The notes: generated by a model from the sequence alone, not told the origin. 64,000 nucleotides of DNA from Candidatus Woesearchaeota archaeon (GCA_018652045.1 JABICX010000010.1:68451-132450); one strand, 5' to 3'. Positions 29,052-53,493 are shown, counted from the stretch's first letter. Numbers and translations are program-made.

Positions 29052-29269
29052 ATACTTGTATACTTTAGTATAATATAAAATTACCGTAACAAAATCCTTA
29101 TAAATCTCCATACTTCTTTTTAGTTATGGCCAATTATGGTGATTGCCCCTGTAAGTTTTAGGAAAAGTCAAGGTAGTCACATATTTCGTTGCAATTGATC
29201 CAAATTAGTTGTAGCTATTGCGCAGGTGGGTCGAATCGAAGATTCGCAGACCTTCTTGGTGCAATATAT

Positions 29270-29375
29270 GCGCAGGTGGCCAAATCCGGTACAGTAAAAG
29301 AGGAGTTCTTTTCCTGCGGGAAAAGGCGTGCGGTTGCAGCCCGCAAGATTATGGGTTCGAATCCCATCCTGCGCT
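29270..29375 (+). tRNA. tRNA-Cys(GCA) with one intron in the D-loop
   Basis: Acceptor GCGCAGG/CCTGCGC, discriminator T73. Anticodon arm TGCGG-TTGCAGC-CCGCA. T arm ATGGG-TTCGAAT-CCCAT. The span is 106 nt; removing 29291-29322 gives a 74-nt cloverleaf. Confidence 0.8.
29291..29322 (+). other. tRNA-Cys intron (32 nt, non-canonical D-loop position)
   Basis: Hand-folded BHB. Central helix TCCG/CGGG, 3-nt bulges GTA and AAA. Intron helix CAGTAAAAGA/TCTTTTCCTG (1 mismatch). The D-stem GCC/GGC acts as the exon helix. Confidence 0.65.
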
Positions 29376-29407: not shown

Positions 29408-30859
29408 ATGGTGATTAGGTTCTACAATACATATACAAAGAAGAAAGAGTTATTTAAACCAATCAATAAGAACGAAGTTACATTGTATACATGTGGTCCA
29501 ACTGTTTACAAACCAATACATCTTGGTAATGCTAGAACATTTCTAATTGAAGATCTGTTACGACGGCATCTAGAGTTCTCTGGTTTTAAGGTGAAGCAGG
29601 TAATGAATATCACCGATGTAGGTCATCTAACACGAGATGATATTGAGGCTGGCGAAGATAAGATCCAGGCTGAAGCAAGGCGAAAGAAAGTTACACCAAA
29701 GCAGATTGCTGAAGTTAATGAGAAAGATTTCTACGCTCAGATGAAGCAGCTTAATGTTCTGAAAGCTTACAAGTATCCTAGAGCCACAGATCATATCAAA
29801 GAGATGCAGGATTGGATAAAGAAACTTCTCAAGAACAAACTTGCTTACGAAGTTAATGGTTCTGTTTACTTTGACATCTCTCGTTTCAAGAACTATGGAA
29901 AACTTTCTGGAAACACAATTGCTAATCTGAAAGCAGGAAAGAGCGGACGAAACTTGCGTAGTGAAGATAAGAAACACTTTTATGATTTTGCACTTTGGGT
30001 TAATGATTCAGAACATCTCATGAACTGGAAGAGTCCTTGGTGTGCTAAAGGTTATCCTGGATGGCATCTAGAGTGTACTGTAATGGCTACAAAGTATCTT
30101 GGAAAACAGTTTGATATTCATATGGGTGGTGAAGACAACATCTTTCCACATCATGAAGCTGAGATCGCGCAAGCAGAAGGCGTTACTGGAAAGCGTTGGG
30201 TTAACTATTGGATTCACCCACGCCACTTAATGGTTGATAAGAAGAAAATGTCAAAGCGAGACGGAAACTTCTACACACCAGAAGATATCTACTCACGAGG
30301 TTTTACACCTAGGCAGCTGAGGTTCTTCTTGATATCTACGCACTATCGAACAAAGCTTAACTTTACATTCGAAGCTCTAGAAGCCTCAAACAAAAGTTTG
30401 CAGAAATTGATAACGTTCATTGATGATTTGCAGAATGCTTCTGGAAGAAGTGCCAAAGATCGAAAGAACTTGGATATTGATGGAGCACTTAGTGCATTGC
30501 GAGTAAAGTTTATTGTTAGCATGAATGGCGATCTAAATATATCTGGCGCGTTAGGAGCACTGTTTACATTTGTAACGCGTATCAATAAACACATGCGTTC
30601 AGGATACATATCTCCAGCAGACGCAAAGAAGATATTGATTCAGTTAAAGAAGTTCGACAAAGTTCTTGGAGTGCTTTTTTGGAAGGGAACTGATAAGTTA
30701 TCTTTAGAGATTAAGCAGTTGATAAAGCAGCGAGAGGATGCGCGTAAGAAAGATGATTGGGCAACTTCTGATAAGATTAGAGATGAGTTAAGAGGTATGG
30801 GTATAGAACTGCAAGATGTCGGAGCTAAGACCAAGGTTGTAGTTAAGTTTAATGTATGA
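29408..30859 (+). CDS. cysS: cysteinyl-tRNA synthetase
   Basis: HIGH-type motif HLGNARTF, KMSKS motif KMSKRDGN, WHLECT zinc-site context. 483 aa. Confidence 0.92.
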   Translation: MVIRFYNTYTKKKELFKPINKNEVTLYTCGPTVYKPIHLGNARTFLIEDLLRRHLEFSGFKVKQVMNITDVGHLTRDDIEAGEDKIQAEARRKKVTPKQIAEVNEKDFYAQMKQLNVLKAYKYPRATDHIKEMQDWIKKLLKNKLAYEVNGSVYFDISRFKNYGKLSGNTIANLKAGKSGRNLRSEDKKHFYDFALWVNDSEHLMNWKSPWCAKGYPGWHLECTVMATKYLGKQFDIHMGGEDNIFPHHEAEIAQAEGVTGKRWVNYWIHPRHLMVDKKKMSKRDGNFYTPEDIYSRGFTPRQLRFFLISTHYRTKLNFTFEALEASNKSLQKLITFIDDLQNASGRSAKDRKNLDIDGALSALRVKFIVSMNGDLNISGALGALFTFVTRINKHMRSGYISPADAKKILIQLKKFDKVLGVLFWKGTDKLSLEIKQLIKQREDARKKDDWATSDKIRDELRGMGIELQDVGAKTKVVVKFNV

Positions 30860-48475: not shown

Positions 48476-48548
48476 GCCTGGGTGGCTTAGTTGGTAGAGC
48501 GTGCGGCTGTTAACCGCGAGGTCACAGGTTCGAGTCCTGTCCCAGGCG
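48476..48548 (+). tRNA. tRNA-Asn(GTT)
   Basis: GCCTGGG/CCCAGGC acceptor, G73. Anticodon arm TGCGG-CTGTTAA-CCGCG. T arm ACAGG-TTCGAGT-CCTGT. 73 nt, no intron. Confidence 0.9.
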
Positions 48549-48575
48549 CTAATGCTTTTTAGCTTTCTCAAAAGT

Positions 48576-48585
48576 CTTTTAAATA
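48576..48585 (+). promoter_or_regulatory. TATA-like box upstream of tRNA-Ile
   Basis: CTTTTAAATA, 22-31 nt upstream of 48607. Confidence 0.5.
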
Positions 48586-48606
48586 CTCAGAAGGCTGTTT
48601 TACCAA

Positions 48607-48717
48607 GGGCGGGTAGCTCAGCCTGGTTAGAGCGCTGGTCTTATAGGGCCGCTTCCATAAGGAAGTTCTCTGGCTTAAGATAGCCAGATGTCGGGAGTTC
48701 AAATCTCCTCCTGCCCA
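48607..48717 (+). tRNA. tRNA-Ile(TAT) with canonical intron
   Basis: Acceptor GGGCGGG/CCTGCCC, A73. D arm GCTC-AGCCTGGTTA-GAGC. Anticodon stem CTGGT/GCCAG, loop CTTATA|A. T arm GGGAG-TTCAAAT-CTCCT. 75 nt after removing 48646-48681. Confidence 0.8.
48646..48681 (+). other. tRNA-Ile intron (36 nt, position 37/38)
   Basis: Textbook hBHBh' fold. Central helix CTTA/TAAG, bulges TAG and ATA, outer helix GGCC/GGCT. Confidence 0.75.
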
Positions 48718-48751
48718 CTTATTTTTACAAAATTTTTCTTACGGAAGAAAG

Positions 48752-48761
48752 TCTTATAAAC
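48752..48761 (+). promoter_or_regulatory. TATA-like box upstream of tRNA-Glu
   Basis: TCTTATAAAC, 24-33 nt upstream of 48785. Confidence 0.5.
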
Positions 48762-48784
48762 CAAAACTAAGGCGGATAACCACT

Positions 48785-48859
48785 GCCCCTATGGTGTAGC
48801 CCGGTCAATCATCTCAGGCTTTCGCCCTGAGGACGGGGGTTCAAATCCCTCTGGGGGCA
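48785..48859 (+). tRNA. tRNA-Glu(TTC)
   Basis: GCCCCTA/TGGGGGC acceptor, A73. GGTGTAGCCCGGTCAATCAT D region typical of archaeal tRNA-Glu. Anticodon loop CTTTCGC. T arm GGGGG-TTCAAAT-CCCTC. Confidence 0.88.
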
Positions 48860-50149: not shown

Positions 50150-50317
50150 TCGTAAAGTTTATAAATGTAAAAAATAAGATGTTATTATGAAACACCTATG
50201 CGCACAAACATTAGTAGAACTCCGGCGTAGATGATATTATTTTTCTAAAGCGATTTGCAAATTTCGTAATACTTTTTGACATAGTTATAAATTTTGGGCC
50301 AGTAGCCTAGTCTGGAT

Positions 50318-50359
50318 ATTGATAATCGAAGATAATCAATCTCTGTTTATCAACCAGAT
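50318..50359 (+). other. tRNA-Arg intron 1 (42 nt, D-loop)
   Basis: BHB with central helix CTGG/CCAG, bulges ATA/ATA and intron helix TTGATAA/TTATCAA. The D-stem GCCT/GGGC is restored after removal. Confidence 0.7.
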
Positions 50360-50368
50360 AGGGCACAG

Positions 50369-50439
50369 ACAGGATGGTGATAGCCACTTGGTGTTTGCCT
50401 TCGGTGCACGCCTTCTAGGTGCAAGCCTCCTAAGTGTAA
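50369..50439 (+). other. tRNA-Arg intron 2 (71 nt, within the anticodon stem, position 29/30)
   Basis: BHB-like with central helix GCAC/GTGT, bulges AGA and AAG, and intron helix AGGA/TCCT (offset by 1-2 nt). Removing it creates the 5' strand CAG+GC of the anticodon stem. Confidence 0.6.
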
Positions 50440-50447
50440 GCTTGCGG

Positions 50448-50463
50448 AGCTTTTAGCGCAGAC
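50448..50463 (+). other. tRNA-Arg intron 3 (16 nt, canonical 37/38)
   Basis: Compact perfect BHB: TTGC/GCAG central helix, bulges GGA and ACA, GCT-TTT-AGC hairpin. Confidence 0.65.
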
Positions 50464-50541
50464 AGCCTGGGATCGGGGGTTCGAATCCCCTCTGGCCCGC
50501 TCAAATGCTAAGAATTAAATATTAGCGAGGTAAAAAATAAT

Positions 50542-52368
50542 ATGAACTTGAAAGTAAATGCGGTAAAAGAATTGCATAAAGTAACGGGTTTGTCTATTCA
50601 GCAGATCGACAAACTACTTGAAACGCCGCCTGACAGCAAGATGGGAGACTTGGCGTTCCCATGTTTTTCACTAGCAAAAAACTTTGGAAAATCGCCAATA
50701 GAGGTTGCTAGACTTGTGAGAGATAGACTTGTAGTTCCAAAAGGTTTCAAGAAAGTAGAGTTTACAGGTCCATACCTAAACTTCTTTTACGAAGCAACAA
50801 ATTTAGCAGAGCAAGTTCTGAAAGAGTCTCTTAAGAAGGATTTTGCTAAGTCAAAAAAGTATGCTGGCGAAAAGATAATCATAGATATGATTGCAACTAA
50901 TCCAAATAAGCCAGCACATATTGGACATGCTAGAAACAGTTGTTTGGCAGACTCTTTATCAAAATGTATGTTGAATATAGGATATAATGTTGTTAGACAG
51001 ACATATGGTAATGATCTTGGAATACCGACTACTGCAGTTTTTTGGGCAACTAAGAATCTTAAGAATCTTCCAAAAAAGACCATGCGAGAAGACTTTTGGC
51101 AGGGTGAGATCTACGCAAAAATGCAAGAGTTAATGGAAAAAGACCCCAAAATAAAAGCTAAAGTTAGTGACTTACTTTCAAATTTGGAAAAAGACAGACA
51201 TTCTAAACTAGCTAAAGCACAGAGAGCATTCGCTGGAAAATGTACGCTTGCACAGGACAAAACGTGGAATAGATTAAATGTAGATTATGATTTAGTTCTT
51301 AATGAAAGTGACATTGTTACTTCAGGTATGGTGGAAGAGGCAGTTAAACTGCTGCAGACAAAAGGGTATTTGGTTGAAGGCCATGGTATTAATGCAGGAT
51401 GTTTGGTTTTTCCTTTGAGTGAGTTCAAGGAATTTAGTGGTATGAAAAATCCTGACAAAATACTGTTTAGACCAAATGGCGCTGCGACATATACTGGTAA
51501 GGATATTGCTTTAACTTTATGGAAAGCAGGCAAGCTAAAAGCTGATTTTAAGTACAAAGAACTAAGAAAAGGATTGTACGAAACGTCTATAGATGGCAAG
51601 GTGATTAAGAATAAGTTTAGTAAGGCTAATAAGATGATGTGGGTGGTTGCATCAGAACAAGATTATGTTATTCTTGTAGATAGATATGCGCTTAAAGTAA
51701 TTTGCGGAGAGCAAGCTTTCGCAGACTCACACCATTTTTCATATGCGATGATTGGTTTTGGTGGAGACGCAAAAATATCTAGCAGATCAGGGGCTAATGA
51801 TTTGGCAGCAGATGTTATTATTGACAAAGCAAAAGTTTTGATTAAGAAAGAGATCGTAAAAAGAAATCCAAAACTGCCGATAACAAAGGTTAAGCTCTTA
51901 TCCGAATCTATTGCATCTGGTGCAATTAGATATTATTTGATTAAAGTCGCACCAAATAAAGGTATTGATTTTAGTTTCAAAGACGCACTTTCATTTGAAG
52001 GGAATACTGGACCTTATTTACAGTACGCATTAGTGAGGGCGAGTAAAATTCTAAAGAAGTCAAAGCAGAAGGTTTCAGTAAGCATTGATTTTAGTCTGTT
52101 GGCATCTAATGAAGAGCAAGCTTTGATAAAGCATATATCTAAGTTTCCAAAAATTGTTGAAAGTGCAGCAGAAAATTATGCACCACATTTAGTTGCTAAC
52201 TTTGCGTATGAGTTGGCGCAGAAGTTTAGTACTTTTTACTCAAAACATAGAGTTATTGGCGTACCGTTAAAGGAAGAAAAAGCAAGATTGTTACTAGTAA
52301 CATCTTTTTATGAGACTCTAAAGAAAAGTTTAAATCTACTTGGAATAAAAGAAGTTGAAGTAATGTAA
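50542..52368 (+). CDS. argS: arginyl-tRNA synthetase
   Basis: N-terminal Arg-tRNA-binding domain. HIGH motif PNKPAHIGHARN. C-terminal DALR-type anticodon-binding region. 608 aa. Confidence 0.9.
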   Translation: MNLKVNAVKELHKVTGLSIQQIDKLLETPPDSKMGDLAFPCFSLAKNFGKSPIEVARLVRDRLVVPKGFKKVEFTGPYLNFFYEATNLAEQVLKESLKKDFAKSKKYAGEKIIIDMIATNPNKPAHIGHARNSCLADSLSKCMLNIGYNVVRQTYGNDLGIPTTAVFWATKNLKNLPKKTMREDFWQGEIYAKMQELMEKDPKIKAKVSDLLSNLEKDRHSKLAKAQRAFAGKCTLAQDKTWNRLNVDYDLVLNESDIVTSGMVEEAVKLLQTKGYLVEGHGINAGCLVFPLSEFKEFSGMKNPDKILFRPNGAATYTGKDIALTLWKAGKLKADFKYKELRKGLYETSIDGKVIKNKFSKANKMMWVVASEQDYVILVDRYALKVICGEQAFADSHHFSYAMIGFGGDAKISSRSGANDLAADVIIDKAKVLIKKEIVKRNPKLPITKVKLLSESIASGAIRYYLIKVAPNKGIDFSFKDALSFEGNTGPYLQYALVRASKILKKSKQKVSVSIDFSLLASNEEQALIKHISKFPKIVESAAENYAPHLVANFAYELAQKFSTFYSKHRVIGVPLKEEKARLLLVTSFYETLKKSLNLLGIKEVEVM

Positions 52369-53204: not shown

Positions 53205-53295
53205 TTATTCTTGAGATTAGTAACCTTTTTAATTAGACTTAGAAGTTATTCTATTATGCAGGGGTGCCGGAGTGGTCAAACGGGCTGGGCTTAGG

Positions 53296-53369
53296 TAGCT
53301 TCGTTTTTCTTAGGAAAAGCGACGTAAGTGCGAAAGCCATACGAAAAAAGGCTTTTAATCGCCCAGGAA
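53296..53369 (+). other. tRNA-Leu intron 1 (about 74 nt, position 37/38)
   Basis: Needed to bring A+CCCAG (53370-53375) next to the anticodon loop. Only a relaxed BHB is visible (CTT/AGG, 3 bp). There are two strong internal hairpins (53302-53321 and 53333-53355). A second CCCAG at 53362 makes the 3' boundary ambiguous. Confidence 0.5.
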
Positions 53370-53383
53370 ACCCAGTGGCTTAG

Positions 53384-53413
53384 ATGGTACGGCTATAGTG
53401 CATGCCAGAGCAA
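53384..53413 (+). other. tRNA-Leu intron 2 (30 nt, in the variable-arm loop)
   Basis: BHB with central helix GCTT/GAGC, bulges AGA and AAT, and intron helix TGGTA/TGCCA. Confidence 0.55.
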
Positions 53414-53493
53414 TGCCTACGGGGGTTCGAATCCTCTCCCCTGCACTATATTCTCTACAATATACTTTTATACGAGCCATGATGATTATCTAA

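Follow-up and report, generated by a model that had tools for sequence, protein, structure and literature searches.

We describe here a tRNA-Arg gene in a 64,000-nt stretch of DNA from a Candidatus Woesearchaeota archaeon (GCA_018652045.1, JABICX010000010.1:68451-132450; hereafter the window, to whose full length all coordinates refer) that appears to combine one shared tRNA body with four mutually exclusive 8-nt anticodon cassettes, from which alternative splicing at bulge-helix-bulge (BHB) motifs would produce four isoacceptors. Judged from its sequence, we give this reading a probability of roughly 60%. The gene spans 204 nt (50296-50499, + strand) and is flanked by a CNNM/CorC-type transporter gene and by argS. 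A preliminary description of the window had presented it as a tRNA-Arg(GCG) gene split by three BHB introns of 42, 71 and 16 nt. The coordinates, strings and lengths given there were all correct, and joining the corresponding exons (50296-50317, 50360-50368, 50440-50447 and 50464-50499) gives the 75-nt product described (GGGCCAGTAGCCTAGTCTGGATAGGGCACAGGCTTGCGGAGCCTGGGATCGGGGGTTCGAATCCCCTCTGGCCCG), which ARAGORN calls as tRNA-Arg(gcg), span [1,75]. We regard it as one of four possible products, which leaves the three-intron description partly supported.

The departure from that description lies in the segment 50369-50439, which had been taken for one plain intron of 71 nt. This segment holds a 28-nt intron and three further 8-nt units, in register with the previously proposed third exon and each with its own 3′ splice module. 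All four units have the form GC-Y-U-NNN-R, corresponding to tRNA positions 30-37, and make up a 13/15/15-nt tandem array on the + strand, the 15-nt period of which was detected by Tandem Repeats Finder. Cassette 1 (GCCTTCGG, 50397-50404) carries the anticodon UCG with G37 and follows GTGT plus TT (50391-96); cassette 2 (GCCTTCTA, 50410-50417) carries UCU with A37 and follows GTGC plus AC (50404-50409); cassette 3 (GCCTCCTA, 50425-50432) carries CCU with A37 and follows GTGC plus AA (50419-50424); and cassette 4 (GCTTGCGG, 50440-50447), the former third exon, carries GCG with G37 and follows GTGT plus AA (50434-50439). All four anticodons are arginine anticodons, all are different, and jointly they read the six arginine codons, every one of which is used in the window's genes. 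Base 37 is expected to be G with NCG anticodons and A with YCU anticodons, and this holds in all four units. The units vary at the Y of GTGY (either base pairs with G24), at the two bulge bases and at Y32, N34, K36 and R37, and are constant at GTG, G30, C31, U33 and C35; the differences among them are confined to positions that are free if the units serve as cassettes.

When each cassette was joined to the shared body at the predicted junctions (GGGCACAGGCCTTCGGAGCCTGGGATC for UCG, GGGCACAGGCCTTCTAAGCCTGGGATC for UCU, GGGCACAGGCCTCCTAAGCCTGGGATC for CCU and GGGCACAGGCTTGCGGAGCCTGGGATC for GCG), all four spliced forms were 75 nt long, had a cloverleaf energy of −33.7 kcal/mol and were called by ARAGORN as tRNA-Arg with the expected anticodon. 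A20 and C35 are common to all four, and the loops CUUCUAA and CUUCGGA also occur in stand-alone tRNA-Arg genes from other loci that are archaeal and probably DPANN. A search of both strands of the window and of 216 fetched loci (loci are identified below by L-numbers) for chains of at least three anticodon-loop motifs for the same amino acid at constant spacing found a four-unit chain solely at this locus and at its orthologue on the metagenome contig L004. A genome scan with GGTTCGAATCCNNNCTGGCCCG returned, among the matches listed, just stand-alone tRNA-Arg(TCT) paralogues and unrelated tRNAs, and a scan of viral contigs for two adjacent cassettes gave 14 matches, none in a tRNA context and apparently due to chance. 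Several other candidate readings of such motifs were rejected. Cassette 1 is not accounted for as a mere C(UUCG)G tetraloop hairpin, as its flanks are unpaired; a candidate fifth cassette (CCG), the string CTCCGG at 50222-27, precedes exon 1, and a match of this kind would be expected to arise by chance; and a second CTTAGG in the intron of the tRNA-Leu gene, considered as a leucine cassette, is not conserved in L004. The string CCCTTCGG in an intron of L147 resembles cassette 1 and is probably a tetraloop hairpin, not a cassette.

The body into which the cassettes would be spliced is made of three exons, all on the + strand. Exon 1 (50296-50317; positions 1-20a), which is identical in L004, contains the 5′ acceptor strand GGGCCAG, the D stem GCCT and the D loop including A20. 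Exon 2 (50360-50368; positions 21-29, AGGGCACAG) ends at the 5′ cut after G29. Exon 4 (50464-50499; positions 38-73) supplies A38, the 3′ strand GCCTG of the anticodon stem, the variable loop, the T arm, the 3′ acceptor strand and the discriminator G; CCA is not encoded. Intron 1 (50318-50359, 42 nt) interrupts the D loop, and a formal scan for BHB motifs, defined as an inner helix together with a 4-bp helix that has a 3-nt bulge on each side, recovered the elements proposed for it: a CTGG/CCAG central helix, ATA/ATA bulges and a 7-bp inner helix (TTGATAA/TTATCAA). Its 3′ site sits in a 3×3 internal loop, so that the motif is a relaxed BHB. The terminal intron (50448-50463, 16 nt) at position 37/38 was likewise recovered as a strict BHB, with a TTGC/GCAG helix, GGA/ACA bulges, the 3-bp hairpin GCT-TTT-AGC and a single H3 strand GCAG (50458-61), the cut falling between C and A of the bulge AC/A. 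For the second intron the proposed GCAC/GTGT helix and AGA/AAG bulges are present, but the scan found no inner helix stacked on them. We also note a direct repeat, GCACAGACAGG and GCGCAGACAGCC (50363-50377 and 50456-50470), that links the upstream intron, at its 5′ splice site, with the terminal intron, at its 3′ splice site, and may be a trace of the array's origin.

Exon 2 is complementary to the start of every cassette. The GTGY that, with two more nucleotides, precedes each unit pairs with the single GCAC of exon 2, an arrangement that amounts to four alternative 3′ splice sites and one 5′ splice site. The 7-nt string AGG-GCAC in exon 2 is able to base-pair with CYU and GTGY on either side of each cassette start. 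It can thereby serve all four upstream splice motifs as the common 5′ strand of their outer and central helices, and in each motif the three nucleotides NN|G bulge out across from the invariant AG|A. At the upstream junctions all four cassettes have a perfect 4-bp helix with 3-nt bulges, and an inner helix is stacked for cassette 1 only. The 28-nt intron segment (50369-50396, + strand), which contains a hairpin (50370-50390) and the first GTGT+TT module and would be removed in every isoform, forms together with cassette 1 a complete hBHBh′ motif (scan positions 50363 and 50391, with an inner helix of 4 bp and an outer one of 3 bp). In local folds the outer helix of 3 bp, the 3-nt bulge and the 4-bp central helix formed for UCU and CCU, UCG came close, and for GCG the central helix alone formed upstream. 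Folds of the whole pre-tRNA constrained to each of the four upstream motifs had energies of −73.5, −72.7, −69.7 and −67.7 kcal/mol.

From this layout we infer which cuts would be made and in what order. The archaeal splicing endonuclease would cut the pre-tRNA at BHB motifs and tRNA ligase would rejoin the ends. Exon 2 would pair with any one of the four GTGY-NN|G-CYU modules, and the 3′ splice site chosen would fix which cassette is joined to G29. Once this joint is made, CAG plus GC could pair with GCCUG of exon 4, and the anticodon stem so formed would set the register of a second motif, in which positions 32-35 face the single GCAG (50458-61) with bulges 36,37|N and AC|A. All sequence downstream of the chosen cassette would then be excised. 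Given this upstream-first order, the first choice alone would determine the anticodon, and the products, built on the common body of exons 1, 2 and 4, would be tRNA-Arg(UCG), (UCU), (CCU) and (GCG), jointly covering the six arginine codons. The suggestion in the preliminary description that splicing must be ordered or structure-guided thus carries over, and with four cassettes such ordering would become essential, because the anticodon made would depend on which cut comes first.

The metagenome contig L004 is ∼77% identical in DNA to the window across the neighborhood. L004 has the same gene order, CNNM - tRNA-Arg - argS, with the same tRNA at L004:3043-3204. It lacks 50318-50359 exactly, reading GTCTGGATAGGGC at the predicted intron 1 junction, and so offers a natural intron-less allele; intron 1 is an ordinary, dispensable D-loop intron. 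In the T stem the two orthologues differ by a compensatory double change, GGGGG/CCCCT to GCGGG/CCCGT. The intron-less allele and this compensatory change imply that a working tRNA has been kept in both lineages. Against identities of 147/200 in the 3′ end of the CNNM gene, 114/149 in the upstream spacer and 28/43 in the downstream spacer, the segment comprising the 28-nt intron, the array and the 16-nt intron (50369-50463) is identical at 95/95 positions, including 28/28 in the 28-nt segment. Control tRNA introns from the same pair of genomes differ at 9/36 positions (tRNA-Ile) and 9/74 positions (tRNA-Leu), in total 18/110 or 16%, and at that divergence 0/95 differences would have P ∼4e-8. 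The array appears, on this comparison, to be conserved like an exon.

This bears directly on the possibility that the gene makes tRNA-Arg(GCG) as its single product and that the three extra units are inert leftovers of a tandem duplication of the anticodon segment. There is precedent for three-intron tRNAs (PMC4390854), a tandem duplication would copy a cassette together with its GTGY module, the GCG unit is the one closest to exon 4, and the GCG path alone has a strict downstream BHB. Inert sequence should drift, however, and the supposed 71-nt intron shows 0/71 differences from L004, compared with 16% for the control introns; nor would drift leave four different arginine anticodons in which base 37 agrees with base 36, or restrict the changes to functionally free positions. 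The upstream motif for GCG is, in addition, the weakest of the four. We consider a single GCG product unlikely, though it is the main rival to the cassette reading.

A number of observations count against alternative use of the cassettes. Each of the four upstream motifs would have to form in competition with the D stem, at 8-13 kcal/mol above the minimum free energy (MFE). The downstream motif is perfect for GCG only; for UCG, UCU and CCU it has 3/4 central pairs, the wobble position 34 facing C59 of GCAG (50458-61), and the cloverleaf-plus-BHB fold of the spliced intermediate lies ∼10 kcal/mol above the MFE for these three, compared with ∼4 for GCG. An initial cut at the local 16-nt intron would commit the molecule to cassette 4 (GCG). 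A search with Pfam found no splicing endonuclease (EndA) or RtcB-type ligase among the window's 56 open reading frames (ORFs) of at least 110 aa. The array is known from two diverged lineages only, and the two arrays are identical and hence without covariation. Among the next relatives of the arginyl-tRNA synthetase (ArgRS; 55%), L084-L087 have a 40-nt CNNM-argS gap without a tRNA, and L231 has a protein gene upstream of argS and no tRNA there. For BHB motifs in general, loose ones are as frequent in dinucleotide shuffles as in the real sequence (54 observed vs 58±10 in shuffles), and hand-drawn BHBs taken alone are therefore not beyond chance.

On the downstream motif, the bona fide 37/38 introns of the window's tRNA-Ser(CGA) and tRNA-Leu(UAG) genes also have 3/4 central pairs and no stacked inner helix; they are equally imperfect, which implies that relaxed motifs are the norm in this organism. 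In DPANN archaea, endonucleases that carry an extra loop have been associated with the disruption of tRNA genes (PMC5829648). An alternative downstream helix for cassettes 1-3, CUUC/CUCC with GGAG (50446-49), places the 5′ cut correctly and the 3′ cut at 50451|52; we rejected it as a complete solution because 12 nt would stay in the loop. As to the wider distribution of the gene, an ArgRS-based metagenome scan returned relatives of at most 46% identity, of which L004 alone was useful, and on the contig carrying P0002, another of the ArgRS relatives (JGI 3300072015), the CNNM-argS gap is 312 nt, large enough for a tRNA.

The identity of the two arrays could also have arisen by recent transfer or gene conversion between co-occurring genomes and not by selection, in which case conservation would carry no information on function. 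L004 comes from a sample series (Ga02334xx metagenomes, JGI 33000229xx/3300024259) that also assembles the window genotype, and L004 and L084 come from the same sample. The identical stretch is also of a length at which short-read assemblies can break, and five short-read contigs terminate within the locus (L001 at 50403, L089 at 50352, L092 at 50390, L093 at 50446 and L094 at 50429), likely because a 116-nt, 100%-identical stretch common to the co-occurring L004 lineage is repeat-like for the assembler. Yet the same gene differs between the two lineages by a 42-nt intron and a compensatory T-stem pair, its flanks are at background divergence so that any conversion tract would need to stop within the gene, and the internal logic of the cassettes would still be unexplained. 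We consider transfer or conversion very improbable.

Although standard tRNA finders give no call for the locus, as might be expected of a pseudogene or an assembly artefact, either explanation is effectively refuted, and we give them next to no weight. ARAGORN, the use of which the preliminary description had suggested, calls the spliced product as tRNA-Arg(gcg) but makes no call on the unspliced locus with intron mode on or off, and the unspliced locus has no match to the Rfam tRNA model at the gathering threshold or at E≤10. The CNNM-argS spacer (392 nt) is, however, 100% identical across five independent assemblies from four data sources (ENA, Logan, JGI and NCBI GCA_018650885.1), the orthologue in L004 carries the compensatory change, and the acceptor, D, anticodon and T arms are all perfect once spliced, the spliced products being called as tRNA-Arg. 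The window is archaeal, with a ribosomal RNA operon containing a tRNA-Ala spacer and a G+C content of ∼38%. The DPANN context that had been surmised is borne out by the metagenome-assembled genome (MAG) GCA_018650885.1, which NCBI names Candidatus Woesearchaeota archaeon and which has the same intergenic locus and an ArgRS in the same cluster (at least 90%). The closest relatives of the window ArgRS outside it are just 55% identical, which indicates that the lineage is sparsely sampled. We conclude that the locus holds a genuine tRNA-Arg gene, interrupted at BHB motifs, and that its genome is a DPANN one.

The position of the gene next to argS raises the question of whether the array has another role. 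The argS gene (50542-52368, + strand), encoding a 608-aa arginyl-tRNA synthetase with the Pfam domains Arg_tRNA_synt_N, tRNA-synt_1d and DALR_1, begins 42 nt downstream of the tRNA 3′ end, and the same 42-nt distance separates the tRNA from argS in L004. One tRNA might be made and the array kept as, for example, an ArgRS decoy or operator controlling argS, or as a processing structure. C35 and G/U36 are identity elements for ArgRS, so that the units could be recognized, and conservation is compatible with any function. The units are, however, not presented as stem-loops of their own, and such a role leaves unexplained the 30-37 register, the GTGY-NN|G modules that pair with exon 2 and the G37/A37 rule. 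We therefore think a decoy or operator quite improbable and continue to favor alternative cassettes.

Upstream of the tRNA lies a probable promoter with the TATA-like box TTTATAAATG (50157-66, + strand), 30 nt before the ATG of a 15-codon mini-ORF and at the same spacing as that between the TATA box and the 5′ end of other tRNAs here. The mini-ORF (MKHLCAQTLVELRRR and a stop codon; 50187-50234, + strand) ends in the codons CGG, CGU and AGA (Arg-Arg-Arg). Its counterpart in L004 (L004:2902-3015) has kept the length, the VELRRR ending and the stop (TGA to TAA), and its middle has shifted frame and returned. Downstream of the mini-ORF are a run of five T residues (50240-44) and a conserved palindrome, ATTTGCAAAT (50253-62). 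The tRNA-Arg gene lacks a TATA box at −30, where one usually lies, and so is probably transcribed from the TTTATAAATG promoter, with the mini-ORF in its leader. Promoter and mini-ORF would form the start of a ∼105-nt leader of the tRNA and may or may not belong to the same system. The mini-ORF could encode a leader peptide that senses arginyl-tRNA. A fuller proposal would make the leaderless RRR mini-ORF, the four-isoacceptor tRNA and argS, sharing a transcription unit or neighborhood, into one self-contained arginine-decoding module, in which the isoacceptor ratio would be tuned by competition between the four 3′ splice modules and the 16-nt intron, and possibly by leader translation, and regulated alternative splicing of the tRNA would be coupled to the sensing of charged tRNA-Arg; we hold such an integrated module to be distinctly doubtful.

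A parallel to the tRNA-Arg/argS pair occurs elsewhere in the window, where a tRNA-Cys(GCA) gene with a D-loop intron (29270-29375, + strand) lies directly upstream of cysS (29408-30859, + strand); the first 10 nt of this tRNA (GCGCAGGTGG) are duplicated 50 nt upstream, at 29220. Intron-rich tRNA-Arg genes (UCU or UCG) also lie within ∼3 kb of argS in other archaeal, probably DPANN, loci (L019:396-549, L026:2468-2622, L028:6918-7020, L035:5593-5714 and L046:4808-4911), and linkage of tRNA-Arg to its synthetase may be widespread. The argS gene of L004 (L004:3248-5674) encodes 808 aa with a fused N-terminal B3_4 domain, a fusion also found in P0004 and P0015, and its product is just 46% identical to the window ArgRS despite syntenic neighbors.

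Other tRNA introns turn over fast between the window genome and L004 (∼77% identical). In the region 48476-48859 (compared with L004:107-1570), the tRNA-Asn gene is intron-less in the window and has a ∼60-nt intron in L004, and tRNA-Ile has an extra 58-nt T-loop intron in L004. The tRNA-Leu(UAG) gene (53258-53445, + strand, 188 nt), missed by both ARAGORN and Rfam, has introns of 74 nt at 37/38 (53296-53369) and of 30 nt in the variable arm (53384-53413); its counterpart in L004 (L004:7386-7600) lacks the variable-arm intron but contains additional D-loop and 30/31 introns. A tRNA with the anticodon UAU (Ile, AUA codon; 48607-48717, + strand) has a strict BHB intron, and AUA seems to be decoded in this organism by a UAU anticodon and not by a modified CAU.

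We know of no other tRNA gene whose single transcript gives rise to several isoacceptors through alternative cis-splicing; use of the cassettes would make this gene the first known to us. A search of the full-text literature, of incomplete coverage, found no published alternative cis (BHB) splicing of a tRNA and no multi-anticodon tRNA gene. Were it borne out, the arrangement would carry the "genes in pieces" principle, as seen in split and tri-split tRNAs, over into a compact colinear format and would mean that ultra-small DPANN genomes could compress four tRNA genes into ∼200 nt. Annotation would then count one locus as up to four tRNAs. Incomplete tRNA sets have been reported for DPANN genomes by standard tools (PMC5829648), and a locus to which ARAGORN and Rfam are blind would help to explain them. 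It would also give tRNA introns a positive function and provide a simple natural system for studying how an archaeal endonuclease chooses among competing BHB motifs.

The closest known systems include the multi-intron (up to three) cis-spliced tRNAs of Thermoproteales, such as tRNA-Glu(UUC) of Pyrobaculum calidifontis and tRNA-Pro(UGG) of P. islandicum (PMC4390854; PMC3218864). These share with our gene a colinear order, BHB or relaxed-BHB introns at the D loop, the anticodon stem and 37/38, very short internal exons and the need for a broad-specificity endonuclease. They differ in that their introns are constitutive and yield one product, whereas the middle "intron" of the Woesearchaeota gene contains three extra anticodon segments, each with a splice-site module of its own, and has exon-like conservation, and in that their hosts are crenarchaeotes, not low-GC DPANN archaea.

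Related stand-alone tRNA-Arg(UCU) genes (L126, L147, L208, L214, L215 and L105, from Woesearchaeota, and L180, binned as Methanosarcinales) resemble our gene in body, T arm and acceptor and in the loop CUUCUAA; those of L126, L147, L208, L214 and L215 also have D-loop introns at the intron 1 site, and that of L180 has an intron at ∼30/31 in the anticodon stem. Unlike the gene described here, each has one anticodon and no tandem units. A conceptual likeness exists to the mutually exclusive cassette exons of eukaryotic mRNA, in which one member of a tandem array is kept by RNA pairings that compete for a shared docking sequence. Our gene likewise has tandem alternatives, the pairings of which would compete for one docking sequence; there the spliceosome acts, whereas an endonuclease and a ligase would act on the tRNA here, and no homology is implied.

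Also among the closest systems are the tri-split tRNA-Gly of Caldivirga maquilingensis and the split tRNAs of Nanoarchaeum equitans, in which separate transcripts are joined in trans (PMC4390854). There, too, a shared body is combined with alternative anticodon-loop segments for synonymous isoacceptors through BHB joining, a likeness that for our gene is one of sequence logic. The pieces of those tRNAs come from separate genes with complementary leaders; here they are contiguous and colinear on one strand in both the window and L004, unlike those of a split tRNA, and they stand in normal order, without the 3′ half upstream of the 5′ half that marks a permuted tRNA. Where the tri-split gene of Caldivirga offers two alternatives, the Woesearchaeota gene offers four, in order within 204 nt, so that the choice would fall to alternative splicing in cis.

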